From sequence record PP554338.1: 40,194 bases of DNA. One strand, written 5' to 3'. The stretch comes from Klebsiella phage vB_KM5a1-KLB24. The notes under the pieces were generated by a model, which was not told the DNA's origin, did not search any database, and worked only from the letters and a program-made list of their open reading frames with translations. Within the stretch, counting starts at the first letter, position 1. Each line of letters begins with the position of its first letter. Position numbers and translations under genes: made by a program. Shown piece by piece: positions 10,358-38,921 of the stretch.

Positions 10358-10380
10358 AAAAAACCCGCAATTAAGCGGGC
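10358..10380 (-). terminator. Intrinsic terminator (GCCCGC-TTAATT-GCGGG + T6 in minus sense) after the 165-aa gene
   Basis: Hairpin plus T-run immediately upstream of the promoter above. Confidence 0.5.
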
Positions 10381-10402
10381 TTTCTGTTACTGCAAAGATC
10401 GT

Positions 10403-10900
10403 TTAGTCGTCCATGCCCGGAATCCCGGCCATTTCGGTTTGCTTGTCAGCGTCGCCAGCAGCGGCGGCGGCTTTTTCGGCGTTAGACTTGCGACCACGTT
10501 TTGATTTTTCCGGCTCCGCCAGCGTTTCAACCGCCGACCAGTCAATAGCGGCGTATTCGCTGAACGGGATTTGCTCAACGGTGAACGCGCCTTTTTCTTT
10601 AATCAGGTCGTTAACGTGCTTTTCGGCAAGCGCCGGGGAGGTCGCGAATTTAACAGTCGATTCACCGTTAAGGGTGATAACGAACGGATAAACGGCGGCG
10701 TCGTCTTTGCCACCTTCAACGCGGGTTACAGCGCTGAAATCGGTAGTTGCGTAATCAGCCATTGGCAGATTTTTAACTTCATACGCGAAATCAGCGGCGG
10801 CTAAATCGCGGGCGTGTGCTTCGGCGGTAGCCAGTGAAAGAGCGGCAACGACCAAAACTTTAGAGCCGATAGTCAGACGGAACGGGATAGGCTGAGACAT
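10403..10900 (-). CDS. Hypothetical protein downstream of the J-like gene
   Basis: 165 aa; AAGGAAA Shine-Dalgarno sequence before the ATG. Confidence 0.45.
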   Translation of the reverse strand: MSQPIPFRLTIGSKVLVVAALSLATAEAHARDLAAADFAYEVKNLPMADYATTDFSAVTRVEGGKDDAAVYPFVITLNGESTVKFATSPALAEKHVNDLIKEKGAFTVEQIPFSEYAAIDWSAVETLAEPEKSKRGRKSNAEKAAAAAGDADKQTEMAGIPGMDD

Positions 10901-10974
10901 AGTATTTTCCTTTACTCGATTGGTTGATTTAGGTTTTTGAATCGGTATCGCTACCGGACGAAAATCATATTAAT

Positions 10975-11006
10975 AAAAAGGGGCCGCAAGCGCAACCCCT
11001 TTTTTC
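10975..11006. terminator. Terminator-like hairpin (A5-GGGGCCGCAAGCGCAACCCC-T6) after the J-like gene
   Basis: GC hairpin with flanking A-run and T-run, 15 nt downstream of the J stop. Confidence 0.5.
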
Positions 11007-11019
11007 ATCTTTTTTTAAA

Positions 11020-14000
11020 TTACTGCATATCGGTAATGATGGTTTTCCCTTTGCGGTAGGCGCTGGCGGTTCCGTAGTATACCGGGTCGTTCGGCCTTTG
11101 CGGGTTCAGCACGTTATCCGGGCAAGTGATTTTGATAATCGCGCTTCGGCCCGTGGTCGTCCTTACACGGTAAACGACGTTCCCGTTAACCCCGGCAATT
11201 GGAACGGTCAGCATGTTGAGGGGAAACACCCTATCGCCGCCACCGTTGCCGGAATCCCAATACATTAATTGTTGCCAGCCTCCGCCGTTAACGCTTTGTT
11301 CAATGTAAAAATAGTTACGCTCATATGTGGACATAGAAAGAGACATGTTTGTTTCTAGAATCCTTTCGAAGTCCATTCCGTTAAGGCGCATAAACACGGC
11401 ATCAACCTGATTATCACCGCTATTGATTGAGCGGTTAGACCAAATCCCGGTTTGTTTAGTGAATAGGTCGCCGTCGATTTGCGCAACCGTCAATTTACCT
11501 TTAATTACGCAATTCTCGTTAATCGTTACGTTGTTCAGGGTTCCGGTTTGCGCCTGAATGTCTCCGCGAATTGTCAGCATACGGCGCGCGGTGTTGAAGT
11601 AAACCCACCGTTCATACGTATCAGGCGAACTAATCGCGAAGTAATCCGCCAGAATATCGACAACCGACGCTTTACCAATTGCAGCATTACCCGCATTAAC
11701 GTAAACACCAGAAACGCGCGGTTGCGTTCCGTTAGGGTCTACCACTCGGAGCGATGCCAATTGCGTTAATCCGGTAATATCCTGATTCATCTTTTTGATG
11801 TAATCGATATTCGGGATATCTGGCGCAATTAATCCGATGATATCGCCTGAGTTATTCGACGTTTTGGTTAACTTCGATTTAATCGCAGATACGCCCAACG
11901 GGTTAATAACGCGGCAACCGAACCAATATTCGGTATTTGGTTTCAATCCGCCTTTGTTCATTACCCACGCGCGGCCCAAATAGTTAATTCCGGCTAATAC
12001 TTCCGATTCAGTAGCGCCGAAGAACCATTGATATTGATCGCCCAATTCATCAACCGGGCCAGCGACCGGACGCAACGAAATGTCGAAGTTTCCGGGCGTC
12101 CAGCTAATATCCTGAACGGGCGAAGGCGGAGCAATTTTAAACGCTAAACTGTTCGGCGTTGACATTCGGTTATCTGTAATTGATACCGAAGTTATTGTAA
12201 CAATATAATTACCGGTATCGGGAATTTGTAATTTTAACATTGTCGTATCAATGTCACGGCTGAAATAGGCCAAATCTTCGCGCGTGATTCTGACACGGTA
12301 GCGGATATTCGTTCCCGCCGTTGGGTTATCAAATTTAATTACGATGTTGGCGTTCGATTTAAAATCTTCATAATCGACCGTAATATTTTTAACGGGAGGA
12401 ATCCCGCCGTAAATAGAACCCGTGTTTACGTCAGGCCCGAAATAAACGTTATTATCAATATCGGAATATTTGCGCGCCGCATGTTGAACGGCTGAAATCT
12501 GGAATTCCTGTTTTTTAGCGTCAAACGTAACATCGAGGCAACGGAACGTTCGCGGCTGAACGTCAATACGCGTAATGGTATAAACGCGGTCAGGCAGAAC
12601 GTTAACGCAAGGTTTTTCGAGGCGACAATTAAATTCGGCATCAATCGACACAATGCGAATTTTAATAAATGTCTTATCCTGCAAAAAGCCCATATAGACT
12701 TGCTCGCCACCAGCAAAGTTAATCGGTTTTTCGGCTTGAATATCGCGGTCGATTTGCACCATGTAACCATCGGCGGAAACGGCCTTGATACGCCCGCCCA
12801 TTTGGACGCCCGCCCATTGGTTATCCGCAATTTCGATAATGTCGCCCGGAACGTTTCGCAATCCCTGAATACCAGTTTTAAACGAAACGGCGCGGGTTTC
12901 CTGTTTTTCTGATTCCAGAATATACAGCCCCAAACGGCGCGCTTGCCCGCGTGACGTGGTACAAAACGCCGTTACCTTTTTAACGTTATAGCCGTAACGC
13001 GCGATTAACTCGTTATCAGCAACGTATTCAATGGCTTTTTCGTAATTGTTTTTGGGGTCACAATACGTCACCTCAACAACCGAATGTCGGTCGTTTAATT
13101 CCGTAGACGTATATTGGAATTGCCCGATTACGTTCGAGTTAGTATATTGCCCCACGATATCGCCGGGGAAGTCAACCGAAATCGAATTAATGGTTCCCAT
13201 CCAAACAGGCATCGCATTAAAAATAGATGTCAGGTCGTTTAAAACTTCCTGCGCTTGTCGCTGGTCATACAATACGCCATTACAGGTAAATCGCGGCTCA
13301 AGTTTCCCGTAACCATCATCAACCATGTTATCACAATAACGCGCCACCGCATAAAGTTGGTAAATGTCCACCATATCCGGCGTGATGAAATCCCCGCAAC
13401 CGAAAATTTCATTCGTCATTAATTCGTAATAAATCCAAACCGGGTTATTGGTAAATGCCATTTTGAAATTACCACCCCAAAATCCCGCGTATGTACGCGT
13501 AACGGGGTCGTAATTATCTGGCACTTGACAAATAATGCCGTCGATTAAATAATTTCGCGTCGGTGATGAACCGAATTGTTCGCTGTCAATTGTCATTCCA
13601 ACAACGGCGCAATAAGGGAACGTTTGTTTTGTATCGCGAATTTCGGTATATGAACGCCAGAACGAATCATTACGCAAGCGGGAATCGGTCGAATCGCGGG
13701 TTTCACGAATAACGCGAACGTCGAAAGGCGGAGCGGGCAAATCCACAATTTCCACGGGTAGCAACCATTCGCTTTCCGCCTTCTGGTTATTCAGGTCTAA
13801 ACGCGCCTTAATAACCCAATTACCGTTTATCAAAACTTCAACGCGTAGCGAAAGGCTGGTTCGGTTCATATCACCGTTAGTCTGATATGCGTAAAGAGCG
13901 GAGCCGCCCAACGTTAAACGCATCCTATCGACAACGCGGTTAATTGTCCGAACGATTGGCGAGCCGTATTTAACATCGACGCCCACGGAAATTTCCGAAT

Positions 14001-14262: not shown

Positions 14263-14287
14263 TTTAAAAATCCTCTTAATCGAAAAA

Positions 14288-14307
14288 CCCCCGAACGAAT
14301 CCGGGGG
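14288..14307 (-). terminator. Hairpin CCCCCG-N8-CGGGGG + T5 (minus sense), fused to a motif copy, 20 nt upstream of the J ATG
   Basis: In minus sense: TTCCACCACTCCCCCGGATTCGTTCGGGGGTTTTT, then a Shine-Dalgarno sequence and the ATG. Confidence 0.45.
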
Positions 14308-14317
14308 AGTGGTGGAA
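14303..14317. repeat. Dispersed 15-nt motif copy GGGGGAGTGGTGGAA (intergenic, ~40 nt upstream of J)
   Basis: Exact copy. Others are listed under findings. Confidence 0.7.
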
Positions 14318-14322
14318 TTTTC

Positions 14323-17172
14323 TTAAACTACGCGGCCCGTTTTTTTACAATATTGCAAATACGTGCCTAAGCCTTTTAAGATTTCCCCGGCCCAAAAGCC
14401 GAAAAACATTCCGTTATTTAATGCCCCGTCGCCGGAATTCTCCCTAACGGCTGGCGACCAACTACCATTCATAATAAAACCTGATTTTATAACAATATAA
14501 TTATCTTCTAATTCCTTTAAAAGCATCGTTATAATAGCATCAAGATTTACGTTTTGATAGCCCGCTAACGCCAGTTGACAGCATCCACACAACCATAACC
14601 CCGTCATATGCCCCGTAAAGTCGTTATCTGGTGCGGTTGGCGGCGCGTCGGCGGTGAATTCAGTCGGCGACCTGCCGTTGTTCGCCTTCATGAACGTATA
14701 AAGGAAGTTAACCCAATTATCTAAATACGGCTTTAATCGCGTAGGCATCGACCAGCCTTTTTCTACAATCAGTTGATAACCACGGGCCAAACCCTGAAAC
14801 GCGCGCGGCTGGTAGCCGCTCCAAGGGTCGTCGGCCCAATGGGTGTAAATGAATGTATTCGGCGTTCCGTATTTCAGGTTATCCCAACGCCACCAGACAT
14901 AAGCCGCCGCAACCGGGCCAGTAACGCCGATATGTGCTTTATATGCTTGCTGCGCGTCATAGCAGAAATTAACCATATTCGTAAGGCGCTTAATGTTTTC
15001 AGCGCGTCGGCCCGCGTTATCGTCGGTAACATAAATCGCCGGAACCTGATAGCCCGGATAAGGCAATCCGCGCCAGCCGTCATATTGCGGCGAATACGGG
15101 TCGTGAATATTCGAAAACGGAATTACGCCGGGAGTGTAGGTTAATGCGTCGTCGCGCTGTTTTGTAACGAAACAATCGCCAATAATACCCGTAAACGTTT
15201 CGTCGCATTGTAACGTGATATCGAAATAAAGCGTATATGAACCATTCACGTTAAAACGTTCGGGGATATCATTCACGCAATACAGATTCAGCGTTGCAAC
15301 CGTTCCGCTAGAATCCTGCAAAATAGAGAATTCTTTAATTACAGAATATGTCGGGGCGGTTGGTCGCGGTTCTTCGTCGCCGTGGTTTGGCTGATATCCC
15401 GAAAGGGTCAGGTTTTCCGGCAATAGCGCAAGCGTCGTATAAACTCCACTCGTACCCGGAACCATCCACCACCAGCGCCAGCCGTTATCATCTTCAAATC
15501 GAATATTGAAGTCGATAGCGGAATCCGTGGAATACGTGACGGAACGAATAGGCGCGGTTTCGGTTGGCTCTAAATAAAAGCCATAGCCCGCGCCGTCCTC
15601 ATTCATCGTATACGCCAATACGTTACCGTTACGACCATCAATAATGTTTTCTACGTATTTCAATTCGTAGGAAGCGTCACCGTATGCCGTCGCGTTACGT
15701 GTGTCAGCAACCAGATAATTCGAGCCGTCGCCTTTTTTAAGCGCCGTGAATTTATCTAGCGTAACGGTTTTCGGAACAATCGCCGCCGGGTCACTTTGAG
15801 TTGTCGGCGGAAGCGGTAATAACCAATCGCGCGTTACGATGTTGTCGCCTTTTGTGGTTGCCATTTTTAAAACTGGTTTGGCCTGAACCACTTTACCGGA
15901 ATTACCAACGCCGCCATATTCAATCGTAAATTCTGAATCGGTGTTTACGCGATACCATATTGATTGTTGCTCTAGCGTTACCTGCGCGCTTTGGTCAGTG
16001 GTAAAAACAATCATACCTTTAACCGGGTCGCGGTCATAAACAACTTTAGTTGACGACGGGTAATAATAATCGTAACTAATACCATCCGTGAAAGGCGTTG
16101 TTGCGCCTAACGCTTTACGGAAGAATTTATCGTTCGAATCAATATCCGCGTATTTGTTACAGGTGATTCGGCTACATTCATAAATTTTAGCGTAACGCGC
16201 TTTTTTGGTCGGGTCGGTTTCTAATTGCCACATTTCATAGGCGCAATCACAAAACCACTGTTCCGCATCCGACGCATTACCGTAAAAGCCCACAACGTCA
16301 ATCGGAACGTTTAACGGGCGGTTATGCCACGGCGCATTAGCCGCCATTAATCGCCCGCCATGTTCTACAGGTTGACGGTTTGCAAAGTTCAATTTGTATT
16401 TACCGTACAATGAACCCTCTACTTTTACGTAGCCTTTCATATTATCCGGGTAAATAACATCGTCCATCCGGTCGCCGTTCGAATTAAACTTTTTACCCTC
16501 ATAGTTAATTAATTCGATAACGTTAAATTCCGTTGCGCGTTTGCTCCAGTTGGTCGAGCCGTCCAAATTGGTTTCGTATGCGCTGGCGTTAATTGCATCC
16601 CACCCCAAATTGCCACGGAAAGCGAAAGTAACAACGTCGAGATATTCGCCCCAATACGGCGCGCCGTGGGGAATATAAACAACGCCGTTATTAAATTCGA
16701 ATTCCACGCCTTTAAAGCCGGAATGCGTAGGCCATTCTAAATCGATAGGCCAGTTCGCTAAAACTGGCTCTTTACCGTTTACAATCCAGTTGCAAACCCA
16801 TTCGTTCGGCGGGTCTGGAATTGGGTTAATTGGCTCGTTATAGAAATAGCGACAATATGCTTCAAATGTTTTTTCGCACCAATCCCACCAATAAGGGTCG
16901 TCGGTTGCCTTGAACATTTCAATAAAGCCCATCAGCGTAATCGATTGGCCTTCGGTTGTGGCGTCGCCGTTTGGCTGCGCTTCAAATTGGGCGCGCGCGA
17001 TGAAATGTCGGTTGTTCGACAAAACGAATTCAGGGTTAAAAACATAATGTTCCGTTTCGGCGTTATTGGTCTTGCCCGTGTTGCGCTCCAAAAAGCGAGC
17101 GTGACCATACGCCAATGATAACGCCTGATTAATTGCGGATTGTTGCGCGTTGGCTAAATCGTGCATTTTCAT
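14323..17172 (-). CDS. Large tail-module protein of unknown function (Trp/Tyr/Gly/Asn-rich; possibly an enzymatic or carbohydrate-binding tail-tip protein)
   Basis: 949-aa ORF inserted between the gpI-like and gpJ-like genes. It has many aromatic clusters (WWDW, WRWWW, VWWRW). No sialidase Asp-boxes were seen. Confidence 0.35.
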   Translation of the reverse strand: MKMHDLANAQQSAINQALSLAYGHARFLERNTGKTNNAETEHYVFNPEFVLSNNRHFIARAQFEAQPNGDATTEGQSITLMGFIEMFKATDDPYWWDWCEKTFEAYCRYFYNEPINPIPDPPNEWVCNWIVNGKEPVLANWPIDLEWPTHSGFKGVEFEFNNGVVYIPHGAPYWGEYLDVVTFAFRGNLGWDAINASAYETNLDGSTNWSKRATEFNVIELINYEGKKFNSNGDRMDDVIYPDNMKGYVKVEGSLYGKYKLNFANRQPVEHGGRLMAANAPWHNRPLNVPIDVVGFYGNASDAEQWFCDCAYEMWQLETDPTKKARYAKIYECSRITCNKYADIDSNDKFFRKALGATTPFTDGISYDYYYPSSTKVVYDRDPVKGMIVFTTDQSAQVTLEQQSIWYRVNTDSEFTIEYGGVGNSGKVVQAKPVLKMATTKGDNIVTRDWLLPLPPTTQSDPAAIVPKTVTLDKFTALKKGDGSNYLVADTRNATAYGDASYELKYVENIIDGRNGNVLAYTMNEDGAGYGFYLEPTETAPIRSVTYSTDSAIDFNIRFEDDNGWRWWWMVPGTSGVYTTLALLPENLTLSGYQPNHGDEEPRPTAPTYSVIKEFSILQDSSGTVATLNLYCVNDIPERFNVNGSYTLYFDITLQCDETFTGIIGDCFVTKQRDDALTYTPGVIPFSNIHDPYSPQYDGWRGLPYPGYQVPAIYVTDDNAGRRAENIKRLTNMVNFCYDAQQAYKAHIGVTGPVAAAYVWWRWDNLKYGTPNTFIYTHWADDPWSGYQPRAFQGLARGYQLIVEKGWSMPTRLKPYLDNWVNFLYTFMKANNGRSPTEFTADAPPTAPDNDFTGHMTGLWLCGCCQLALAGYQNVNLDAIITMLLKELEDNYIVIKSGFIMNGSWSPAVRENSGDGALNNGMFFGFWAGEILKGLGTYLQYCKKTGRVV

Positions 17173-18773: not shown

Positions 18774-19533
18774 TTGTCAAAGTCTCCGATTTGATTCGGT
18801 CAATTACCATTTGATGAATTGCCGGGGGAGTGGTGGAATTGCGCCAGATTGAATTACAAAATTTAATCCAAAACTTATCTATAATATCAATCTTTGATTT
18901 GCGATTGGTGATATGGTGAATAAATTCGTTATCACCTAAGTAAATCCCGCAATGGTTCGGAACGCTCGACGCGTAATTAAATAACATCGTGTCGCCCGGT
19001 TGCAGGTCTGCAAGTTCCACGCGACGGAATCCTTCACGCTCGATATTGTCCAGATAAAGATTTTGGCCTTCATCCCACCAATCCGAATCGCGTTTATAGT
19101 TATCCATGCGAACGCCGCACATTGCATAGTAATCCTGCATAATCGAATAACAGTCAGTTACCCCAACAACGTAATCCCGGCCCCGGAATTTTGGAATTGG
19201 CGCGAACGCTTCCGCCGTCCAGTTTGGTTTAATCAACAACCAATCGCCGTCGCGGTTGTCATATTGCGCTATTCGGTCAAATGCCGACAAGTGCGGGAGG
19301 TGATACGCGTCCGGGTGAGAATGGACGACATAAACGATTTCACCCATAGAGCGGGCGGCGTCAGTGTCTAACATATCAATTTCGAATCCGTCGCTACGGT
19401 CGGCGGCGATATTCTGACATTCATAAAATTGATAGTCTCCACCACTCCGGCAAATAATATAACCGCAAATTTCGAATAGCGGCGACATTTTCGCGCGGGC
19501 GATAGCGGTTGCAATAGCGGCTTTTAATTCCAT
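18766..19533 (-). CDS. K: Lambda gpK-like tail tip assembly protein (JAB/MPN + NlpC/P60 domains)
   Basis: JAMM motif VVHSHPD...SAFD. NlpC/P60 Cys (VTDCYS) and His (HCGIYLG...HH). It overlaps gene I by 8 nt, as in lambda. Confidence 0.8.
   Translation of the reverse strand: MELKAAIATAIARAKMSPLFEICGYIICRSGGDYQFYECQNIAADRSDGFEIDMLDTDAARSMGEIVYVVHSHPDAYHLPHLSAFDRIAQYDNRDGDWLLIKPNWTAEAFAPIPKFRGRDYVVGVTDCYSIMQDYYAMCGVRMDNYKRDSDWWDEGQNLYLDNIEREGFRRVELADLQPGDTMLFNYASSVPNHCGIYLGDNEFIHHITNRKSKIDIIDKFWIKFCNSIWRNSTTPPAIHQMVIDRIKSETLTNG
18824..18838. repeat. Motif copy inside the 3' end of the gpK-like gene, ~50 nt upstream of the gpI-like start
   Basis: Exact copy; in K it encodes STTPP. Confidence 0.65.
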
Positions 19534-20592: not shown

Positions 20593-20617
20593 AAAAAACC
20601 GCCCACGGCGGGCGGTT
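20593..20617 (-). terminator. Hairpin CCGCCC-N5-GGGCGG + T6 (minus sense) immediately upstream of the gpM-like ATG
   Basis: Perfect 6-bp GC stem followed by a T-run; the ATG is ~15 nt downstream. Confidence 0.4.
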
Positions 20618-20646
20618 CTAGTATAACAGGCGTTGCGCTGGTGGGT

Positions 20647-21294
20647 CTACGCCGCTTTGTAACTCTCCAGCCGTTTAATCACACCGGGAGTTATCGCCAG
20701 CAGGTTAACGGCGTGTTGATAGCCCATGGCGGCCCCGATAAACGCTTGCTTGTCGCCGCCGTAGTCGTTCAGCGATAACAGGCGAGAAAACGATTCGTTC
20801 TTTTCGGAATCCGCCATTGTTTGCAGAATGGACGGCATTAAAACGGTATGCGGGTTTTCGTTTTTCAGTACCAGCGCCGAAATCGCGCCTTCCACGTCCA
20901 GAATTTCGCCGTCGTCCATTTCGAACGTGTGAACAGTTTCGACGATATTCACCAGTTCGCGCGCCGCGAAACTTTGCAAAGTGTCGCCGTCCTGAATCTT
21001 GGAAACAAGCGAGTCAACCAAATGACCGGGGAACGCCGTTCCGATATTTGGTTTGAAAACGCCACCTTTGATAATATCCCCGGCGCTTTCGTCGGTAATC
21101 ATCGTAAAGGCGAATTGCACGATTTGAAGTTGTTCGGTAACTAACAGCATATCGCGGAAGAACGAAAGTTTTTGTTTGTCGTCGCCCATTTCGGCGGCGG
21201 CTTTGTTAGACTCTAAAAGCGAACGAATGATTGCGAGATTTTGCCCCGCCGTAGCGACTAATTCAGGGATATTAATTTCCGGTTTCTTTTCCAT
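20647..21294 (-). CDS. Hypothetical protein between the tape measure and gpM-like genes (start reassigned to MEKKPEIN with an AAAGAG Shine-Dalgarno sequence)
   Basis: 216 aa. Lambda has no counterpart at this position. Confidence 0.45.
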   Translation of the reverse strand: MEKKPEINIPELVATAGQNLAIIRSLLESNKAAAEMGDDKQKLSFFRDMLLVTEQLQIVQFAFTMITDESAGDIIKGGVFKPNIGTAFPGHLVDSLVSKIQDGDTLQSFAARELVNIVETVHTFEMDDGEILDVEGAISALVLKNENPHTVLMPSILQTMADSEKNESFSRLLSLNDYGGDKQAFIGAAMGYQHAVNLLAITPGVIKRLESYKAA

Positions 21295-21574
21295 TCTCTT
21301 TGGCCTTCGATTGGTGATAATCAGGAACATGAACATTCAGGACGCGGCGCGCCCCGAAACGCTCGATTGCGGCGGAGGTTGCGCCCTCCACCGTTTCGGA
21401 ATCCGCTAAATCCGTAAGCATGGTCGCTTTTGAACCGTCGCGAAATTCCACCGTGTACACTCGATACATCTTACAGCATACCCAAAAACAGGATAACGAC
21501 GACAACGACAAGGGCGATTTTGCACATCGCGCGCCCTTCGGCGTAAACCGGGTTAACCGTGCTATACTCGACAA
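21272..21574 (-). CDS. Hypothetical small protein; start uncertain (probably the internal MYRVYTVEF...)
   Basis: The N-terminal part of the ORF overlaps a separate 38-aa hydrophobic ORF in another frame; the C-terminal ~65 aa look real. Confidence 0.25.
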   Translation of the reverse strand: MSSIARLTRFTPKGARCAKSPLSLSSLSCFWVCCKMYRVYTVEFRDGSKATMLTDLADSETVEGATSAAIERFGARRVLNVHVPDYHQSKAKENGKETGN

Positions 21575-21584
21575 CGTGTTTCAT

Positions 21585-21627
21585 AAAAAAGCCCCTATCG
21601 TTGAAATCTGAATTTCATCTTAGGGGC
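21585..21627 (-). terminator. Extended hairpin (GCCCCTA...TAGGGGC with an inner GAAAT/ATTTC stem) + T6 after the tape measure gene
   Basis: Located 15 nt after the tape measure stop; the T6 follows directly in minus sense. Confidence 0.45.
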
Positions 21628-21641
21628 AATTAATCTAAATG

Positions 21642-23903
21642 TCAACTACCGTTTGCGCGGTCACGGTCAGATAATTTTTTATCTACAATCGCTTCGGTCA
21701 TGCTTTTTAGCGTTTCCAAATCGTCGGCGGAAATCCCGCTCCCCGTGATATGGTTAATTTGGGTAAATTCGGAAGTTCCACCACTCCCGCCACCGCCGCC
21801 CATTGCTTTTTGCAAATTAGCGTTACTGGTGATTTGCCCGCCTGAACCCGGAACCGTGAATAACTCCGGCCCCTTTTCCCCTACAAGGTAGGTTTTACCG
21901 CCGTACACTGGCCCGCCTTTTTCACGCGCCCCGGCTAACTCGACAACGCCTTGCGCCGCAATTAACGCCGCTTGCGCATAACCCCACGCGGTAATGCTTT
22001 CCGCCGCCGCCATTTGCGCCGCTGGCCCTCCGGGGGTATTCGCCGCCGCCATTACCCCGGCAAGGTTCGCCGCCATAATTGCTTGACCAACTAACATCGC
22101 CTTTTGTGCCAGTGTCGCAACTAACCACGCGGCGGAACCCTGTTCGGCGCTCGATTTCACCACGTCGGCGAATCCGCTTGCTAAATCAATTCCGCGATTA
22201 ACGGTATCGTTATATTTCTGCATTCCCTCCGCTTGTTTGGCGAACATATCGTTACGACCGATATTTTCCGTTTTTTGCGTTAGTGCGTTTCGGCGCTGTT
22301 CATAGTCAATCTGAATCGCCAATAATTGCTCCTGAAAACGCTGTTCGGAAACTAATTTTTGGTCATGTTCATAATTGAGTCTTTCGACGGCTGAACTACG
22401 GTTCATTTCTAAAACGCTGGCGTCGCGGTCAGCCTGAATTTTATGTAATCTTTCCTGATAGTCAGCCTCGGAAAGTAACATTTGTTCATGCTGTGAATTA
22501 AGGCGTTCCATGCGGTTTTGATATACTTGCTCGATATCAGCGCCGTATTTTTGCGTATTAAGCATTTCAACGCCGCGTTGATATTCGCGTTCGCTAACCA
22601 ATCCCTTTTTATGGAATTCGTCTAACTTTTTAAGTTGAATTGCGTAGTTGCGGTCTGCCTTGTCTTGCTGAGTCGCTATATTCGCATCAAGTTGCGTTAA
22701 CCATGCGGCGGCTTGCTCTTTTTGCGCTGCAAACTGTTTAGCCTTTTGCGCGCTATCGTCTTTCGCTGGTTTATTCCATCCACCATCCGGGGCGGCTTTT
22801 TTCGTGATGTTGTCAACGTCGGATTGCATATCCGCAACAACGCCTTTCAAATGGTCTAGACCGTCATATGAAATAACCGGGTCAACGCCCAATTGAATCA
22901 TTCCGTTTCGGATTAAATCGCCGTTATTGCCACCCGTCAGGAATCCGCGAATTGCTTCGCTGAAACCGTCTTTAGTGAAGAATTTAGCAAATGAAGTATT
23001 TTCCCAATCTCCATTCATTAAATCTAACAATTCGTTAATTTCGTCCACGGTAGGGGCCAGAATATTAACTTTCCAGTCGTTGAAATTCGTTTTCAGGGTT
23101 TCAATCTTTCTATCCCATTCCGCGTATTTTGCCGCAACGTCAGACGTTACCCCGACATGTTGATTTGAAATGGCGTTTAACGCGTCCATTTCATTACCAT
23201 ATTGTTGCAGCACTCCGACCAAATGCGAACCGTCCGACGCTAACGTTTCCATCATGTTCGTAATTTCGGCCTGATTCTTTCCGGCGTTTTTCAATTCAAA
23301 GAATGTATGAATTAACGCCTTAATGCCGCCGTTCGTTTGGTTCAAATATTGGTTGTAGTCTTTCATGGAAAGGCCCAACGCTTTCATATCGTCGGCAGGG
23401 CCGGAACCATCGCGGAACGCGTCGCCCAAATGGTCCAATACGTCTTTGTTAATATCGCCGAATTTATCAATCTCCATTCCGGTAGCGATAAACTCTTTTT
23501 TCATTTGCTGCAAATATTCAATACTGGTTCCGGTAGCCGTCGCGACTTGCCGCATTTCACGAACATAATCGGCGTTTGCATTAATCGCCATTACCACCGC
23601 ACCAGCAACGGCAGTTAGCCCACCAGCAATTAAACCGAATGCGGCAAGGTAACGGGCCGCGCCAGCCTCCGCTCCCGCCATAGTGGTTTTAACGCGGTTG
23701 ATTAAATCGTTGATATCGCCAAATGACGAAACGGAAGAATTGCGGAGGCTGTTAAAAACGTCCTCCAGATTTTCCACCCCGTCAGCCATTCCGCGCGTTG
23801 AGTCGTTAATTTTTTTCTTTGCCCGTTGCGTGTTTTCGGCAAGGTTATTAACGACGTTCGACATATTATCGCGCGCGGTTAAAAGCGTATTAATAATCGG
23901 CAT
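21642..23903 (-). CDS. H: Tail tape measure protein
   Basis: 753 aa with long coiled-coil-like segments and a Gly-rich C-terminus. It sits after the G/G-T chaperones and before the M/L/K/I/J-like genes. Confidence 0.8.
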   Translation of the reverse strand: MPIINTLLTARDNMSNVVNNLAENTQRAKKKINDSTRGMADGVENLEDVFNSLRNSSVSSFGDINDLINRVKTTMAGAEAGAARYLAAFGLIAGGLTAVAGAVVMAINANADYVREMRQVATATGTSIEYLQQMKKEFIATGMEIDKFGDINKDVLDHLGDAFRDGSGPADDMKALGLSMKDYNQYLNQTNGGIKALIHTFFELKNAGKNQAEITNMMETLASDGSHLVGVLQQYGNEMDALNAISNQHVGVTSDVAAKYAEWDRKIETLKTNFNDWKVNILAPTVDEINELLDLMNGDWENTSFAKFFTKDGFSEAIRGFLTGGNNGDLIRNGMIQLGVDPVISYDGLDHLKGVVADMQSDVDNITKKAAPDGGWNKPAKDDSAQKAKQFAAQKEQAAAWLTQLDANIATQQDKADRNYAIQLKKLDEFHKKGLVSEREYQRGVEMLNTQKYGADIEQVYQNRMERLNSQHEQMLLSEADYQERLHKIQADRDASVLEMNRSSAVERLNYEHDQKLVSEQRFQEQLLAIQIDYEQRRNALTQKTENIGRNDMFAKQAEGMQKYNDTVNRGIDLASGFADVVKSSAEQGSAAWLVATLAQKAMLVGQAIMAANLAGVMAAANTPGGPAAQMAAAESITAWGYAQAALIAAQGVVELAGAREKGGPVYGGKTYLVGEKGPELFTVPGSGGQITSNANLQKAMGGGGGSGGTSEFTQINHITGSGISADDLETLKSMTEAIVDKKLSDRDRANGS

Positions 23904-24528: not shown

Positions 24529-24549
24529 AAAAAGGCCGAATTAACGGCC
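24529..24549 (-). terminator. Hairpin GGCCG-TTAATT-CGGCC + T5 (minus sense) between the major tail gene and G, preceded by a motif copy
   Basis: In minus sense: TTCCACCACTCCCCCGCAATTACAAGGCCGTTAATTCGGCCTTTTT, then AAGGAA and the ATG. Confidence 0.5.
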
Positions 24550-24559: not shown

Positions 24560-24574
24560 GGGGGAGTGGTGGAA
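24560..24574. repeat. Motif copy (intergenic, upstream of the terminator and G)
   Basis: Exact GGGGGAGTGGTGGAA. Confidence 0.7.
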
Positions 24575-26913: not shown

Positions 26914-26939
26914 AAAAAAGGGGCCGAAGCCCCTTTATA
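26914..26939 (-). terminator. Intrinsic terminator GGGGC-TTCG-GCCCC + T6 (minus sense) right after the major capsid gene
   Basis: Tetraloop hairpin with a T-run, as is common after highly expressed capsid genes. Confidence 0.6.
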
Positions 26940-28196: not shown

Positions 28197-28841
28197 TTAG
28201 ATTGAATTCAATAGGAAGTTTTCGCGAATTTGCGCGCTCTTTGCGTCAATTTCGGTTTCAATTTTACGTGTATTTTCAGCGGAACGCAACGCCGAATTTG
28301 CCACATTATACGCCGGGAAAGTGACCGGACTAACATCAATCACCGATTCGATTTTGGTAATCGAACGGTAAACGGTATCACTTGCGGCATCGTATCGCCA
28401 TTCGTCGCCGTCCTCCGCGACAACAAAACGGAATGAGGATTTATCAACATCACCCCGGCGCATAACTTCAATTACCGTATCACGGATAAATTGAGTATCG
28501 GGGGGAGTGGTGGAATAAAATAATCCGCGTTCGGTAATTTCCAGTTTCAGAGTATTACCGGACATTGAACCTAAAACGATATCGTCGTTATGGTTCCATA
28601 CGGATTTGCACATAGAGAAATCTGCGCCGTCAAATGCCCCGGCCCGGATAGTCTCGACGAAATACCCCAAATTATCAGAAGGGGAGTTAAACACCGCCGC
28701 GTAACCTTCGATTTTCGGAAGTGGGTCATTTTCGCCACCAGCCGAAATCATCGCGGCCCGTAGTTCGTCAGTGGTGTTAAAGGTTCGAACCTCAACACCG
28801 CCCGATTTCAACTTTTCTTGTACTTCCTGAATTCGGCTCAT
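28197..28841 (-). CDS. Prohead protease (HK97 family, S78/U35)
   Basis: The N-terminal EGYAAVFNSPSDNLGYFVETIRAGAF block is typical, and the gene lies between portal and capsid. A motif copy lies within the coding sequence. Confidence 0.75.
   Translation of the reverse strand: MSRIQEVQEKLKSGGVEVRTFNTTDELRAAMISAGGENDPLPKIEGYAAVFNSPSDNLGYFVETIRAGAFDGADFSMCKSVWNHNDDIVLGSMSGNTLKLEITERGLFYSTTPPDTQFIRDTVIEVMRRGDVDKSSFRFVVAEDGDEWRYDAASDTVYRSITKIESVIDVSPVTFPAYNVANSALRSAENTRKIETEIDAKSAQIRENFLLNSI
28500..28515. repeat. Motif copy inside the prohead protease gene
   Basis: GGGGGGAGTGGTGGAA; encodes YSTTPPD in the same frame as the K copy. Confidence 0.65.
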
Positions 28842-30238: not shown

Positions 30239-32107
30239 TTAGAGCGTTCCCCACTCGTCGGGGTCGGCCTCCGGGATTATAACATCTGTAATATACCTAA
30301 CGATACGGGAAATCGCGTTAAATGTCGCGGCTGGCCCATCAATTTTGTTTTCCAACGACGATTTATCGGGAAAGATGTTATTGTTCTTATCCGGTTTAAC
30401 CTGAACGTTCGCCAACATCCAATCGAATACTAAATTATGGTCGTGATGGAATTTGCCAGCAAAAACTAATTCCTGAAATTTTACCATCGCTTCATTTAGG
30501 TTTTTCACGGTTTGAGTAACTTCGACAATCTGATAACCGCGACCATTCATCGCAAGCGCGAATTGCGTTGCTTGCCACGGGTCGTAAGCAAGTTCTTTGA
30601 AATATTCTTTATCTTCCTCAATCCATGCGGATAAATCTTCCTCAATTTCTTTATGGTCGATTACGTCGCCTTCGGTTAATTTCAGCAATCCGCGTTCGGC
30701 GAATCCTTTATATAACTCCGCTTGCGATTTTGAGCATGATTTTAAACGGCCTTCCGGCAACCAGAATTTGCAGCGTAAAACGGCATGGTCTTTTGCTGGC
30801 CCGTCCATTACGTAATAAACTTTTACCGCTGCGCATAAGTCGATTTTATTCGACAAATCCACGCCAACCCAATAAGGGATTTTTAACGGTTTCGCGTTTT
30901 TCAGTTGCGACCATCTAATCATATCCATCCACGCCGACGCACCAGACACAAAGATATTACAATGTTTGGTCATAAAGTTGGCGCGCGCGTCCACCGCTTG
31001 TTTTGCTTTTTCGGCCTGTTCGCGCATTGTCTTTAATGCCTTACTAGCGCCTAACCCCGGATTCGCTTTATACCACTGACTTTCATCATATTCATTATCG
31101 TTATCCTCTATACTTTCAAATTCAGTATCGAGCGTATAAAAAAGGAAGAAAAACGAATCGCCAACATTTTTGGAAGCGAGGCGCAAAATCATTTTGCCGT
31201 AATCGCGCAATTCGGCGCAAATACCATTAAGGATAACGCCAGCGGTTGAAATTGCCAAAATGAGCGGTTGACGGCGTGAACCCGTCGCGGTTTCCAGAAC
31301 GTCGAAAAGGTCGCGTGATTTCATCGCGTGGATTTCGTCGAGAATTCCGCAATGGATGTTCAGCCCGTCGAGGCTATCCGCTTCCGATGCAAGCGGAACG
31401 AATTTCGAATAACTCTCAACATGGAAAATTGACAGTTTCGCGGTTTTAATGATTTCCTTCAATTCGGGCGATTTCTCGACCATTTGTTTTGCATCGTCAA
31501 AAACGATTCGGGCTTGGTCGCGTTTCGTTGCAGCGGAATAAACTTCCGAACCGCCTTCGCCGTCAAAGCACATCATATATAAACCGATTCCCGTTGCTAG
31601 GAACGATTTAGCGTTTTTACGCGCAACCAGAATTAACGCGGTAGAGAATCGGCGAACGTATACATCGTGATATGTGTAAGAATCGGTTTCCTCGTCGTAT
31701 TCTTCATCCTGTATAATTTCGCCTGTTTCGTCGTCGCGTAATGGCTTAATAAAGCCGAACAGGTTAACGAGAATAAAGATATGCCAATCCATCAAATCAA
31801 CGGGGTCGCCCGCTTTAACTTTAACCGACGCTTTAACGTGAACCAAATAAGTTTCGAAAAAACGCAATACATGTTCGGCGCGTTCAATGGAAAATTCTAA
31901 ATCGTCGTCCGGGTCGTCACAACGAGCCAAATCATTTAGAAATCTTTCGCAAGCCGAAATTATCCATTGCGCGGCTTTTCGTTTTCGCTCCACCACTTCG
32001 GTTGCATATTGAACAGCATCGCCAACCGTCGCCGTTCCATTTGGCACTAATCGGCAAAACGTAAATTGTTCGGCTGGTGGGTTTTTATCAATATCTAATT
32101 TAATCAT
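30239..32107 (-). CDS. terL: Terminase large subunit (Terminase_1 family)
   Basis: 622 aa. Deviant Walker A VARKNAKSF (HK97-type PRKNGKT) and a C-terminal nuclease region. Confidence 0.85.
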   Translation of the reverse strand: MIKLDIDKNPPAEQFTFCRLVPNGTATVGDAVQYATEVVERKRKAAQWIISACERFLNDLARCDDPDDDLEFSIERAEHVLRFFETYLVHVKASVKVKAGDPVDLMDWHIFILVNLFGFIKPLRDDETGEIIQDEEYDEETDSYTYHDVYVRRFSTALILVARKNAKSFLATGIGLYMMCFDGEGGSEVYSAATKRDQARIVFDDAKQMVEKSPELKEIIKTAKLSIFHVESYSKFVPLASEADSLDGLNIHCGILDEIHAMKSRDLFDVLETATGSRRQPLILAISTAGVILNGICAELRDYGKMILRLASKNVGDSFFFLFYTLDTEFESIEDNDNEYDESQWYKANPGLGASKALKTMREQAEKAKQAVDARANFMTKHCNIFVSGASAWMDMIRWSQLKNAKPLKIPYWVGVDLSNKIDLCAAVKVYYVMDGPAKDHAVLRCKFWLPEGRLKSCSKSQAELYKGFAERGLLKLTEGDVIDHKEIEEDLSAWIEEDKEYFKELAYDPWQATQFALAMNGRGYQIVEVTQTVKNLNEAMVKFQELVFAGKFHHDHNLVFDWMLANVQVKPDKNNNIFPDKSSLENKIDGPAATFNAISRIVRYITDVIIPEADPDEWGTL

Positions 32108-32126
32108 TATTTAAATCCCTGAAATG

Positions 32127-32147
32127 CGGGGGGAGTGGTGGAACCCC
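32127..32147. repeat. Motif copy in the loop of a GGGGG/CCCCC hairpin, 20 nt upstream of the TerL ATG
   Basis: GGGGGGAGTGGTGGAACCCCC. Confidence 0.7.
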
Positions 32148-33138: not shown

Positions 33139-33151
33139 TATTAATTACCCC

Positions 33152-34499: not shown

Positions 34500-34510
34500 T
34501 ACCGGAAATA

Positions 34511-34545
34511 AAAAAGGGCGGCAAGTTTTTTACACTTTGCCGCCC
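34511..34545 (-). terminator. Strong intrinsic terminator (10-bp GGGCGGCAAG stem + T5 in minus sense) after the lysis cassette
   Basis: In minus sense: GGGCGGCAAAGTGTAAAAAACTTGCCGCCCTTTTT, directly after the Rz1 stop. Confidence 0.65.
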
Positions 34546-34581
34546 TTAGTCCGGTTGCCAATCGAGGCATTTACAACGATA

Positions 34582-34851
34582 TCACTTCGGAACAGACCAT
34601 TCAACAAGTTTCTGATAACGCGCCCAACATTCTAAATACATTCGCGAAATAATATCGATATGGGAAATTAATTCCCCGCCGTTTGCACCGTCCGGCGATT
34701 TCGGGCGGAGTGGTGGAATCGGTAAACAGTCAATTGTTATTGATTTCGGCGGGCGTCTTTCCGGCGTATTTATTGATTTGCTGCAACCCGTCATTATCAG
34801 AACAGACAATATTATAAACAGGACGTTTCTTAATTTCATTAAGTTGACCAT
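34582..34851 (-). CDS. Rz1: o-spanin (Rz1-like outer-membrane lipoprotein), embedded in the +1 frame of Rz
   Basis: Lipobox LIMTGC and a Pro-rich mature region. It overlaps the 3' part of the Rz-like gene. Confidence 0.6.
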   Translation of the reverse strand: MVNLMKLRNVLFIILSVLIMTGCSKSINTPERRPPKSITIDCLPIPPLRPKSPDGANGGELISHIDIISRMYLECWARYQKLVEWSVPK

Positions 34852-35116: not shown

Positions 35117-35149
35117 ACGAAAAAACCGGGATTTCTCCCGGCCTCCTTA

Positions 35150-35827: not shown

Positions 35828-35830
35828 TTT

Positions 35831-36157: not shown

Positions 36158-36220
36158 AAAAAAGCCCCCGTAGGTTAGTGGAGGCTTAAAGATACAAGAT
36201 TTATTTAATTCTTTCTATTA

Positions 36221-36739: not shown

Positions 36740-37215
36740 TATAAACCCCCTTCCGTTGGTGCGTACAAATCGACAAATTCGTTAGTCTGCCAAACGCCCA
36801 CAGCGTGAATATCTTTAATTACTGGCATATGTGCGGATTGCGTACCCTTCGAAATCTTCATTTCGAATTTAATGGTTGCCACCGTTTCAGGATGGAAGAT
36901 GTTTAATCCCAAAACGCGAATAAACAATTCGTAATCTTTTTTATCTTGCATGAACAGTTTTTTGTAATCGTCCATTGAATAGAATTGTTCGATAATGACG
37001 CGACGGTTAGAAACGTAAACTTTCGCTTTAACCGCGTCATGTTCCGGCGCTGGCTCGATACGCATCGCGCAAGCGTAAGAACCTGAAACCAGTTCGGCGG
37101 CGTTGTCGTTCCCGGTTCCTTTGTCGCGGGTGTATTCTTTGATAACCTTCTCTAACGCACCCTCTAAAACCTTGCAACGCGTCTTTAGCCCTTCAACTTC
37201 CTGAATCAAATTCAT
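36739..37215 (-). CDS. Hypothetical protein (first gene after the control region)
   Basis: 158 aa; GAGGGT Shine-Dalgarno sequence. Confidence 0.45.
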   Translation of the reverse strand: MNLIQEVEGLKTRCKVLEGALEKVIKEYTRDKGTGNDNAAELVSGSYACAMRIEPAPEHDAVKAKVYVSNRRVIIEQFYSMDDYKKLFMQDKKDYELFIRVLGLNIFHPETVATIKFEMKISKGTQSAHMPVIKDIHAVGVWQTNEFVDLYAPTEGGL

Positions 37216-37273
37216 GGTTTACCCTCGATTGGTTTTACCGTAATGGCGAATTGTTCCACCACTCCCGCCGATG

Positions 37274-37302
37274 ATTATCTAACAATTTCCGCGTTTCCGC
37301 AA
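37274..37302 (-). promoter_or_regulatory. Candidate sigma70-like promoter TTGCGG-N17-GATAAT (minus sense) with tandem TACACCCC repeats upstream
   Basis: Hexamers at correct spacing. GGGGTGTATAA / GGGGGTGTAAAAA (37308-37331) lies at about -40 to -65. A motif copy (37254-37269) lies at about +1 to +20. Confidence 0.35.
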
Positions 37303-37307
37303 TTGTT

Positions 37308-37609
37308 GGGGTGTATAAGGGGGTGTAAAAAGTTATAAAACAGTATCATTTTGACTTTTTCCCTTTACCGTTCAATCACTTACGGCTGATTTTCGTTGTT
37401 TTTCGTTTTCTAATAGGTACTTCCACCGAACCCGGTTCCCCCTACCCTAGAAATTCACAATTAAAAGGGGTGTGTATATGGTAAGGAGTTCTCTAGAAGG
37501 AAAGCATAGTTAAATGCCAAAACATACAGTAAGTATATGAATATATAGATATATATAACTATATATATAACTTCTTTTAACTACTATCTAAAAAGGGGTA
37601 TATACACCC
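37308..37609. repeat. Iteron-like repeats GGGGTGT(G)TATA x4 (three direct, one inverted) in the non-coding control region
   Basis: Copies at about 37308-37318, 37319-37331, 37467-37481 and 37594-37609 (inverted, forming a short hairpin). An AT-only tract (37535-37571) and the palindrome ACTTACAGTAAGT (37639-37651) lie between them. Confidence 0.5.
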
Positions 37610-37714
37610 CTAGAATTCAGGATTTTGTCACCTCCTTAGCTTTCAACAACTTACAGTAAGTCATTGAAACGTATAGGAAAGTTAAAATCGCTAATTTAAT
37701 TAATTCCAGAAATG

Positions 37715-37738
37715 AAAAAGCCCGACAAATCGCCGGGC
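37715..37738 (-). terminator. Intrinsic terminator GCCCG-N9-CGGGC + T5 (minus sense), preceded by a motif copy, ending the early gene block
   Basis: In minus sense: stop, then TTCCACCACTCCCCC, GCCCGGCGATTTGTCGGGC and TTTTT. Confidence 0.55.
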
Positions 37739-37753
37739 GGGGGAGTGGTGGAA
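37739..37753. repeat. Motif copy (intergenic, adjacent to the early-block terminator)
   Basis: Exact copy. Confidence 0.7.
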
Positions 37754-37760
37754 CCTTCAA

Positions 37761-38135
37761 TTACTCAATTCGCGCATTACCCTCTATTATCCAAAATTCA
37801 GTATCGGGCAATTCGTCTAACTCTAATTTTCCGTTTCTGATTTCTTTGATATGACCGTTTATTACCATATTCATGACGGAACCAAACGACATGTTTTGCC
37901 GTCTACTCTTTTCTATCTGCGAATCGTTCGCCAGCATGACGCCGCAAGAAATGGACATGTTAGGCCCGAAACTTAATTTTACGCTTTTCGGCTGGAATAA
38001 ATCGGCGTCAATTATCATTTTCCAGTCGTGAACAGGGTCGCGCGATTCCGCGCAATAACAAACGACTTGAATTTTATCCCCAATCTTTGCGCGGCCCTGC
38101 AAGTGCCACGCGGCAATTTTAAATTCGTTCTTCAT
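37761..38135 (-). CDS. Hypothetical protein (possible small beta-barrel, ASCH/PUA-like; weak)
   Basis: 124-aa ORF. Confidence 0.4.
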   Translation of the reverse strand: MKNEFKIAAWHLQGRAKIGDKIQVVCYCAESRDPVHDWKMIIDADLFQPKSVKLSFGPNMSISCGVMLANDSQIEKSRRQNMSFGSVMNMVINGHIKEIRNGKLELDELPDTEFWIIEGNARIE

Positions 38136-38149
38136 TTTATCACCTCGAT

Positions 38150-38172
38150 AAAAAGCCCGCGCGCGGCGGGCC
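38150..38172 (-). terminator. Terminator GCCCGC-CGCGC-GCGGGC + T5 (minus sense)
   Basis: Between two early genes, followed by a GAGGTG Shine-Dalgarno sequence. Confidence 0.5.
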
Positions 38173-38178
38173 TGTTAG

Positions 38179-38496
38179 TTAGAAATTCAGGTTAACGCGT
38201 TCAATGATGATTGAGGCGTTTTCGATATTCTCGACCACTTCGCCGTAAACGCTACACTGTTTGACGGCGAACCCGTTTTGCTTTTTCGGGGTGTGCGGCT
38301 GAACGCTAGTTTTGAAGCGGCGACCGTTCGGTTCGATAACTTCAATTTCGTAAGCGGCGCATTCAGAAACAATCATGTTAAACAGATTGTTTTGATTCGG
38401 CATTTCGTTATAGAAAACGAAAGTTTTTACGTTAACCTTGCTACCCGCGACAATCAGGTTCGCGCCGTTAAATTTCAGAATGTCAATCTTAACCAT
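38179..38496 (-). CDS. Hypothetical protein (start reassigned to MVKIDILK)
   Basis: GAGGA Shine-Dalgarno sequence before the internal ATG. Confidence 0.4.
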   Translation of the reverse strand: MVKIDILKFNGANLIVAGSKVNVKTFVFYNEMPNQNNLFNMIVSECAAYEIEVIEPNGRRFKTSVQPHTPKKQNGFAVKQCSVYGEVVENIENASIIIERVNLNF

Positions 38497-38551
38497 TTTT
38501 ACAAATCCTCGATTTAGGGTTAAGGCCCGCAACCGTTCGGGCCTGATAAAG

Positions 38552-38579
38552 ATAATACGCGAATTTAGGAAATTAGCAA
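38552..38579 (-). promoter_or_regulatory. Sigma70-like promoter TTGCTA-N16-TATTAT (minus sense)
   Basis: Shares the AAATTCGCGTATTAT block with the promoter at 10318-10345. Confidence 0.45.
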
Positions 38580-38585
38580 ATTAAT

Positions 38586-38804
38586 TTATTCGATAATTTC
38601 GATTTGGTCGCCAGCGTAGAGCGTGACCGGGAAACAAATTGCATCTTCCACGCCGTCAGTGGTTAGGCCGAAATTGATTCGGTTCAGTAACGGGCGGTGC
38701 GACTCCGCAAGCGACTCGACGGTTCGCACGGTGTAGGTTTTTTCTGAATCGAAACGAACGCGATTACCGATTTTAAGCGCCGAAGCGCGAACGAATTTAG
38801 CCAT
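38586..38804 (-). CDS. Hypothetical small protein (start reassigned to MAKFVRAS; AGAGGA Shine-Dalgarno sequence)
   Basis: 72 aa. Confidence 0.4.
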   Translation of the reverse strand: MAKFVRASALKIGNRVRFDSEKTYTVRTVESLAESHRPLLNRINFGLTTDGVEDAICFPVTLYAGDQIEIIE

Positions 38805-38851
38805 TTTCTTAAATCCTCTTTTGTGGTTCGACGCGTTTTGCCGTTGAGAAG

Positions 38852-38880
38852 ATATTACGAAATTCAGAATTAAAGCGCAA
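38852..38880 (-). promoter_or_regulatory. Sigma70-like promoter TTGCGC-N17-TAATAT (minus sense)
   Basis: Has the same GAATTTCG spacer block as the other early promoters. Confidence 0.4.
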
Positions 38881-38901
38881 GCGGTTTTTTGAAGAAACAC
38901 G

Positions 38902-38921
38902 AAAACCCCCAATTAAGGGGG
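38902..38921 (-). terminator. Terminator CCCCC-TTAATT-GGGGG + T4 (minus sense)
   Basis: Between the genes 38942..39214 and 38586..38804. Confidence 0.5.

Follow-up and report, generated by a model that had tools for sequence, protein, structure and literature searches.

Intrinsic-terminator-like hairpins and promoter-like elements in the minus-strand gene block of Klebsiella phage vB_KM5a1-KLB24

The long minus-strand gene block of Klebsiella phage vB_KM5a1-KLB24 (PP554338.1), a member of the proposed family “Ca. Rivulusviridae” (PMC11845039), contains 14 intergenic hairpins that look like real, selected intrinsic terminators. In the likeliest reading, which we regard as modestly probable, they are leaky and act together with internal promoters, both being read by host RNA polymerase. 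The window analyzed is the whole stretch of 40,194 nucleotides, which is a complete ~40.2-kb siphophage genome. The initial annotation had listed 11 minus-strand GC-rich stem-loops, each followed by 4 to 6 T residues; all 11 are present, so the observation is confirmed and was slightly understated.

Hairpins in the intergenic gaps

Every position on both strands was scored with a d'Aubenton-Carafa-type function (d), which combines hairpin energy per nucleotide with a weighted T-tail. On the minus strand 16 sites have d > 0, and 14 of them are intergenic, sense oriented, and within the co-directional block. These include all 11 of the hairpins listed previously, among which the scores at 24534 (3.2), 21591 (5.6), and 38906 (10.3) are lowest and the remainder fall between 16 and 35. 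The three sites added here are 35126-35141 (d = 27), 36164-36185 (d = 3.4), and 9615-9632 (d = 40). The minimum free energy (MFE), computed with ViennaRNA on short hairpin-plus-tail segments, is -11.7 to -21.1 kcal/mol at the 11 listed sites, with z-scores of -2.5 to -5.5 for most of these segments, and -11.6, -14.8, and -19.7 kcal/mol for the added hairpins, giving a range of -11.6 to -21.1 kcal/mol over all 14.

The 14 sites lie within 20 minus-strand intergenic gaps of at least 25 nt, which total 1,972 nt; 100 dinucleotide-preserving shuffles of these gaps yielded 0.49 +/- 0.66 sites (maximum, 3). Coding sequence on both strands has only six matches with d > 0, all with d < 11, and there are almost none on the wrong strand. 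The hairpins start 7 to 37 nt past a stop codon, and every stem is directly followed by a U-tract of 4 to 6 T residues. The distance from the T-run to the next ATG is 0 to 20 nt at 8 of the 13 internal sites, in line with the earlier statement that many immediately precede start codons. A stable GC-rich stem-loop with a U-tract, on the sense strand past a stop codon, more frequent than by chance and conserved in relatives, is what is expected of an intrinsic terminator. The criteria of a lax consensus terminator scan proved too permissive to show any excess over shuffles, and the energy/T-tail score was used instead; a first permissive RNAfold scan, which returned ~180 long and mostly spurious hairpins, was discarded. 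An Rfam search matched no family.

Gene names are those of the annotation of Klebsiella phage vB_KM5a1-KLB28, which is 98% identical to the window over the part compared, transferred onto the window. On this map, the assignment of the hairpins to a late block holds for most sites and fails for those at 38902, 38150, and 37715, which are upstream of a ~545-bp gap and belong to the early/middle region. The mapped layout is as follows.

1-2829, minus strand: PrimPol gene
3130-9610, plus strand: replication block
From the gap down to 9640, minus strand: nuclease/lysis, packaging, head, tail, and accessory genes
37760-37216: gap of 545 bp, with the early genes on one side and the nuclease/lysis genes next
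40124-37761, minus strand: small early genes

The terminator-like hairpins (MFE in kcal/mol) are listed below.

38902-38921, minus strand: CCCCC-TTAATT-GGGGG and T4 after hyp039, early region (d = 10.3, MFE -12.1)
38150-38171, minus strand: after hyp042, with the hyp043 ATG 14 nt on (d = 19.9); annotated as a terminator in KLB28
37715-37738, minus strand: closes the early genes, with a motif copy directly before and a 499-nt gap after (d = 23); seven of seven relatives
36158-36185, minus strand: weak hairpin whose T6 adjoins the hyp046 ATG (d = 3.4, MFE -11.6); kept in KLB28 and KLB29 with loop-only differences
35120-35141, minus strand: between the endolysin and i-spanin genes, ATG 3 nt on (d = 26.7, MFE -14.8); annotated in KLB28 and KLB29, with two compensatory stem changes in KLB29
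34510-34545, minus strand: strongest internal hairpin, after the o-spanin (Rz1) gene (d = 32.6, MFE -21.1)
26914-26933, minus strand: after the major capsid gene, connector gene ATG 17 nt on (d = 29.1); seven of seven relatives, with differing sequences
24529-24549, minus strand: after the tail-tube gene and before chaperone G (d = 3.2, MFE -11.7, z = -4.6); six of seven relatives, with a compensatory G-C to C-G change in KLB29
21585-21627, minus strand: weak large-loop hairpin and T6 after the tape-measure gene, T-run adjoining the ATG of a small transmembrane protein (d = 5.6, MFE -16.8); kept in KLB29, but without the T-run
20593-20615, minus strand: strong terminator, tail-tip gene M 14 nt on (d = 35.3); five of seven relatives
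14283-14307, minus strand: before the gene for a 1,080-amino-acid J-like tail protein (d = 16.3); five of seven relatives; the CCCCCG of its 5' arm also forms the 3' end of a motif copy
10975-10999, minus strand: after the J-like gene, with an A-tract upstream (d = 29.3, MFE -19.8)
10358-10379, minus strand: after a signal-peptide protein gene (d = 19.7, MFE -14.9); identical hairpin in KLB29
9609-9632, both strands: bidirectional, at the junction of the minus-strand block with the plus-strand replication block (d = 40 minus and 5.4 plus, MFE -19.7); seven of seven relatives
5007-5028, plus strand: internal to the replication block, ATG at 5045, 20 nt on (d = 19); annotated in KLB28, KLB29, and KLB5

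The last of these shows that the placement of a terminator before a start codon is not special to the late genes. Eight of the 14 minus-strand sites coincide with features annotated as terminators in the KLB28 GenBank record.

The d scan was repeated on six relatives retrieved via the capsid protein: KLB28, KLB29 (~78% identical to the window over the part compared), KLB5 (~5% intergenomic similarity), and the Serratia/Dickeya relatives Rovert, Ulliraptor, and Sucellus. The number of genomes with a terminator at each junction, counting the window as one of seven, is as follows.

After the capsid gene: 7/7
After the tail-tube gene: 6/7
Before M and before the J-like gene: 5/7 each
Upstream of the ~500-bp gap: 7/7
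Following the lysis cassette: 7/7
Convergent end of the block: 7/7

The same junctions are thus occupied despite sequence turnover, the DNA of the six relatives being otherwise almost unrelated. For example, the hairpin after the capsid gene takes the forms GGGGC-TTCG-GCCCC, GGGCCG-TTAATT-CGGCCC, GGGGC-GCAA-GCCCC, and TGGAGAGC-GCTTT-GCTCTCCA. Between the window and KLB29, hairpin changes are either compensatory, as at 24534 (GGCCG/CGGCC versus GCCCG/CGGGC in KLB29) and 35126 (CCGGG/CCCGG versus CCCGC/GCGGG), or confined to the loop, as at 20599, 36164, and 9615. It is the positions of the terminators, not their sequences, that selection appears to preserve.

A TTAATT loop is common to many hairpins, including those at 10364-10379, 24534-24549, and 38906-38921 in the window and those at 5454, 8111, 22291, ~33863, and 34907 in the record of one relative. 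The exact module CCCGC-TTAATT-GCGGG has three occurrences in KLB29 and a single one in the window, as though such terminator modules had been copied or were convergent. At two sites (21585-21595 and 36158-36168) where the T-run adjoins the ATG, the 3' arm of the hairpin (AGGGGC or GGGGGC) is the only Shine-Dalgarno-like sequence; thus, folding would mask the ribosome site of the downstream gene.

Promoter-like elements and the reading of the block

The best position weight matrix match to a sigma70-type promoter on the whole minus strand overlaps the hairpin after the tape-measure gene. Its -35 element contains the tape-measure stop codon, its -10 element is in the 5' arm of the hairpin, and the predicted start is inside the loop; transcripts from this promoter therefore cannot form the terminator. 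This composite is conserved in register in five genera and is present in KLB29, KLB5, Rovert, and Ulliraptor (the coordinates in the relatives' records, in no particular order, are ~15735-15790, ~10815-10870, ~16175-16230, and ~10995-11055), with the consensus TTGACA-17-TAnnnT. The -10 element ends 8 to 10 nt into the hairpin in KLB5, Rovert, and Ulliraptor; the KLB29 hairpin is without a T-run. The element and three further candidates in the window are listed below.

21617-21645, minus strand: predicted sigma70-type promoter, TTGACA-17-TAAGAT
20620-20649, minus strand: promoter-like TAGACC-18-TATACT with a TG extension, ending 5 nt before the hairpin at 20615; TATACT is kept in KLB29
34576-34604, minus strand: promoter-like, TG-extended TTGAAT-17-TATCGT, 31 nt upstream of the post-Rz1 hairpin; TTGAAT-17-TATTGT in KLB29
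10318-10345, minus strand: promoter-like TTGTGA-16-TATTAT, between the terminator at 10364 and the motif copy at 10306

Promoter-like elements comparable to the one at 20620-20649 abut hairpins in Ulliraptor and Sucellus. Across six genomes, a -10 element ends between -6 and +10 of the hairpin start at 9 of 82 sense terminators versus ~1.6 expected, an expectation that is taken from the genome-wide hit density and is rough, intergenic DNA being more AT rich. In the early region, promoter-like elements follow the terminators in the usual order, as does a sigma70-like TTGCGC-17-TAATAT downstream of the terminator at 38902-38921. The hyp042 leader (38520-38579, minus strand) has a sigma70-like TTGCTA-16-TATTAT and, after it, a stable hairpin (GGCCCG...CGGGCC) that lacks a T-run and may be a 5' stabilizing stem-loop.

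The initial annotation had treated the structural and lysis genes as one transcription unit from a promoter region at ~37.3 kb. This is not supported: the ~37.3-kb region has a weak consensus match only, within a gap poorly conserved in KLB29, and a conserved internal promoter is predicted at 21645-21617. The block therefore does not appear to be transcribed as one unit.

In the reading that we favor, the hairpins would be functional Rho-independent terminators for host RNA polymerase, and their presence in nearly every sizeable gap would cut the block into ~10 segments (nuclease/lysis; packaging, head, and capsid; head completion and tube; chaperones and tape measure; the three-gene cassette; tail tip; J; and accessory genes). 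Each would be a partial stop that provides a stable 3' end for the upstream message, in particular those for the abundant capsid and tube proteins. A fraction of the polymerases would pass each terminator and transcript levels would step down, to be replenished by internal promoters abutting or inside some hairpins. At the post-tape-measure junction, new transcripts would begin in the loop and escape the terminator, and a Shine-Dalgarno-like AGGGG would be unmasked in the window transcripts that start there. What was computed is the presence, stability, excess, positional conservation, and geometry of the hairpins, and it is from these that we infer termination efficiency, read-through, and promoter activity.

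Where the next ATG is only 0 to 20 nt past the T-run, no separate promoter fits, and either read-through or starts inside the hairpin are therefore needed. Siphophages need tube protein in amounts comparable to those of capsid protein. No promoter-like element separates the tail-tube gene from the predicted-strong post-capsid terminator upstream of it, and substantial read-through would therefore be required at this junction. Leaky terminators have been mapped in other phages: in LUZ7, >60% of mapped terminators are <50% efficient, with stepwise read-through, and in T7 inefficient terminators balance expression (PMC9163698).

Several points weigh against this reading. The d score was calibrated on Escherichia coli terminators with older energy parameters. 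The promoter calls other than the post-tape-measure element score no better than many intragenic chance matches. Predicted-strong sites (d = 27 to 35, perfect GC stems, T6) precede essential genes with no detectable promoter at 35126, 26920, and 38155, and active antitermination fits these sites as well as leakiness does.

Processive antitermination, in which an ORFan early protein or a cis element would make host RNA polymerase terminator resistant, would render the hairpins efficient stops early that are ignored late. Phage factors of this kind have precedents in Xp10 p7 and P23-45 gp39. It would account for predicted-strong terminators 3 to 20 nt upstream of essential genes with no promoter between, and the closing of the early region by three terminators just before the late genes is consistent with it, as are the ~12 early/middle proteins without a recognizable family and a conserved motif 0 to 10 nt upstream of three hairpins. 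However, the lambda-style version, one of the options named in the initial annotation, found no support. Scans of 30 proteins against Pfam and of 10 early/middle proteins against PHROG identified PrimPol, VRR-NUC, HNH, small terminase, DUF669, and a small helix-turn-helix protein but no Q, N, NusG/KOW, RfaH-like, sigma, or RNA polymerase domain. Most early proteins are ORFans, so these negatives do not amount to evidence against such a factor; four early/middle ORFans have no sequence relative in the PDB. The boxA pattern had no match at up to 2 mismatches and a chance-level count at 3, the ops element had no exact site and only scattered near matches that are not promoter proximal, and Rfam offered no RNA family. 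The hyp044 protein was considered as a conserved late regulator and rejected, its positional counterparts being only 13 to 22% identical across genera. Conserved internal sigma70 promoters would also make antitermination unnecessary at some junctions, and we consider it a rather unlikely, although not negligible, alternative.

Two other explanations appear improbable, to much the same degree. The hairpins could serve mainly as protectors of RNA 3' ends after endonucleolytic processing, or as translational gates, rather than as polymerase stops. The masking of the only Shine-Dalgarno-like sequence at 21591 and 36164 would suit a gate, but the hairpins are strand specific and every site, in the relatives as well, keeps a run of 4 to 6 T residues after the stem, which an exonuclease barrier does not need. 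Alternatively, near-complete terminators could delimit fully insulated operons, each with its own promoter overlapping the hairpin, either of sigma70 type or with the TTCCACCACT motif described below as a phage-specific promoter. Promoter-like elements or motif copies do precede 6 of the 13 internal hairpins, and the motif-then-hairpin order of the window before J and after the tube gene is replaced by a sigma70-like promoter and then a hairpin in Ulliraptor and Rovert. However, neither kind of element is found at 26920, 35126, 36164, or 38155; the Pfam and PHROG scans found no phage RNA polymerase or sigma factor; and the motif is without a -10-like part or flanking conservation, some copies being 10 to 47 nt inside the 5' ends of genes or antisense in the replication block.

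An evenly spaced motif on one strand

The motif is 16 to 17 bp long, consists of TTCCACCACT and a GC-rich genus-specific tail, and occurs in ~10 copies per genome. It is common to the Klebsiella, Serratia, and Dickeya relatives, and in each of the seven genomes its core, TTCCACCAC, ranks first or second among 9-mers by frequency. Bases 1 to 10 do not vary between genera, and the 6 or 7 that follow are genus specific (CCCCCG, TGCGCG, or TGCCCCG); no conserved positions flank the motif. At up to 3 mismatches, 15 matches occur in the window versus 0.44 expected, and all 10 of the strong copies, the 5' ends of which are the higher coordinates below, are on the minus strand.

37739-37753, minus strand: TTCCACCACTCCCCC, directly abutting the hairpin at 37738
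34704-34718, minus strand: CCGCC variant, inside the o-spanin gene
32129-32143, minus strand: between the small and large terminase genes
28501-28515, minus strand: inside the prohead protease gene
24560-24574, minus strand: 10 nt upstream of the hairpin at 24549
18824-18838, minus strand: inside tail gene K; syntenic in five genera
14303-14317, minus strand: overlaps the hairpin at 14307 by 5 nt
10292-10306, minus strand: hyp025 ATG 18 nt on
5423-5437, minus strand: antisense in a plus-strand exonuclease-like gene; syntenic in KLB28, KLB29, KLB5, and Ulliraptor
2223-2237, minus strand: inside the PrimPol gene, encoding a conserved IPPLP

On the circularized genome, the intervals are 2.6 to 5.7 kb with a coefficient of variation of 0.23 (P < 1e-4 versus random placement); the coefficient is 0.25 to 0.43 in other genera. 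Fewer copies are on the opposite strand, most of them at irregular intervals. Three reading frames are used among the intragenic copies, and the copy in the PrimPol gene keeps the CCA-CCA codons for the conserved PPLP. The motif adjoins or overlaps three hairpins in the window, as TTCCACCACTCCCCC (at 37738, 24549, and 14307), and in other genera it is found just after terminators; both kinds of element may simply be crowding into the few intergenic gaps.

In IMG/VR, an exact-motif scan returned chance single matches only and a single-protein PrimPol search found nothing, while a PrimPol family alignment retrieved two metagenomic relatives with the motif and seven distant PrimPol contigs without it; the motif is therefore family specific and not linked to PrimPol in general. 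A literature search with the motif string found nothing relevant. The motif was rejected as a sigma70 -35 element and as a sigma54, sigma32, or T7-type promoter, for want of a -10 element at a fixed distance, of flanking conservation, and of a phage polymerase or sigma factor, and the copies inside gene 5' ends or antisense argue further against a promoter role. No match was found to a DnaA box, KOPS, boxA, or ops. A Chi variant was also rejected: TGGTGG is common to both, but the motif is 16 to 17 bp long with a genus-specific half, and the enrichment of canonical Chi is separate and limited to three genomes. The canonical octamer, GCTGGTGG, occurs 22 times in the window (13 and 9 per strand; ~1.2 expected), e.g., at 20637-20644, 40164-40171, and 32073-32080, as well as 23 times in KLB28 and 18 times in KLB29, with 0 to 2 copies in KLB5, Ulliraptor, Rovert, and Sucellus. 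These counts point to selection for Chi that is specific to the genus, possibly because it protects against RecBCD.

Candidate readings of the motif are a nick site, a priming or Chi-like signal, a phage-specific promoter, and a polymerase-reloading site. The closest likeness is to the nick-associated motifs of tf/Rembedalsseter, phiKMV, and T5 (PMC3517423, PMC11780129), which are also short, are present in ~8 to 14 copies on one strand whatever the gene direction, are conserved within a family despite little DNA identity, and are found in and out of genes. The same strand bias irrespective of gene direction and the same family-wide conservation are found here. However, the motif differs in sequence, is longer, and is evenly spaced, whereas spacing is uneven in tf-like phages, and any nicks at the motif here are putative. 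By this analogy the motif could mark a new family of site-specific nicks, a proposal that we make tentatively. It is more probable than a second proposal, in which the motif would be a cis signal for machinery moving along the whole genome in a single direction, specifically a periodic reloading site on the non-template strand that at ~4-kb intervals would keep host RNA polymerase termination resistant across the 14 terminators; this we regard as very unlikely. If true, antitermination here would be guided by a protein or by DNA and have no relation to N, Q, put, or RfaH/ops.

Inverted motif copies, at 37739-37753 (minus strand) and 37254-37268 (plus strand), bracket the gap at 37216-37760. 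This gap also contains an AT-rich TATATA repeat tract (~37530-37575) and three or four copies of TAYACACCCC, one of them inside a palindrome at 37594-37611, and Sucellus has eight copies of TATACATATATAC, six on one strand and two on the other. The 545-bp gap may be an origin or a regulatory region. GC skew merely tracks gene orientation and was uninformative on replication direction.

Relation to known phage systems

The arrangement most resembles that of T7, with T-phi after capsid gene 10, and LUZ7 (PMC9163698), in which, as here, GC hairpins with U-tracts follow the genes for capsid or other abundant proteins, read-through is needed for the essential genes downstream, and the hairpins seem to tune stoichiometry. 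The differences are that the polymerase here is presumably the host enzyme throughout, no phage RNA polymerase having been found, that the density is high (14 sites in ~29 kb), and that efficiencies are predicted from sequence. The lambda N/nut and Q/qut (pR'-tR') systems share a long co-directional late block with terminators, some with promoter-like elements just upstream, but the searches of the window yielded neither an N or Q homologue nor boxA/boxB or an arrangement like qut. The lambda late operon has essentially one terminator, compared with ~10 in this block.

Between the tape-measure gene and M, three small genes (20647-21584) resemble the morons of HK97 and lambda-like phages, in which a promoter, an open reading frame (ORF), and a terminator are placed between tail genes. 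This cassette is bracketed by the consensus-like sigma70 promoter (21645-21617, activity predicted) and the strong terminator at 20599 (20615-20593), with the ORFs at 21584-20647 between them; in KLB5, no terminator with d > 0 was found between the cassette and the tail-tip genes. In contrast to morons, the hairpin that precedes the cassette has the promoter embedded in it, and conservation across five genera would make this promoter an old fixture rather than a recent insertion.

The hairpins are real and their conservation is robust, but as phage regulatory architecture they are of an ordinary kind. The motif is more unusual than the terminators, and both it and the embedded promoter are parts worth following up; synthetic biology could reuse the terminator with an embedded promoter as a compact insulating junction. 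Together, the hairpins and promoter-like elements provide a concrete transcription map, open to testing, for a family of enterobacterial siphophages that has been little studied (“Ca. Rivulusviridae,” or the Carrot-like cluster), members of which are being developed as model soil phages.

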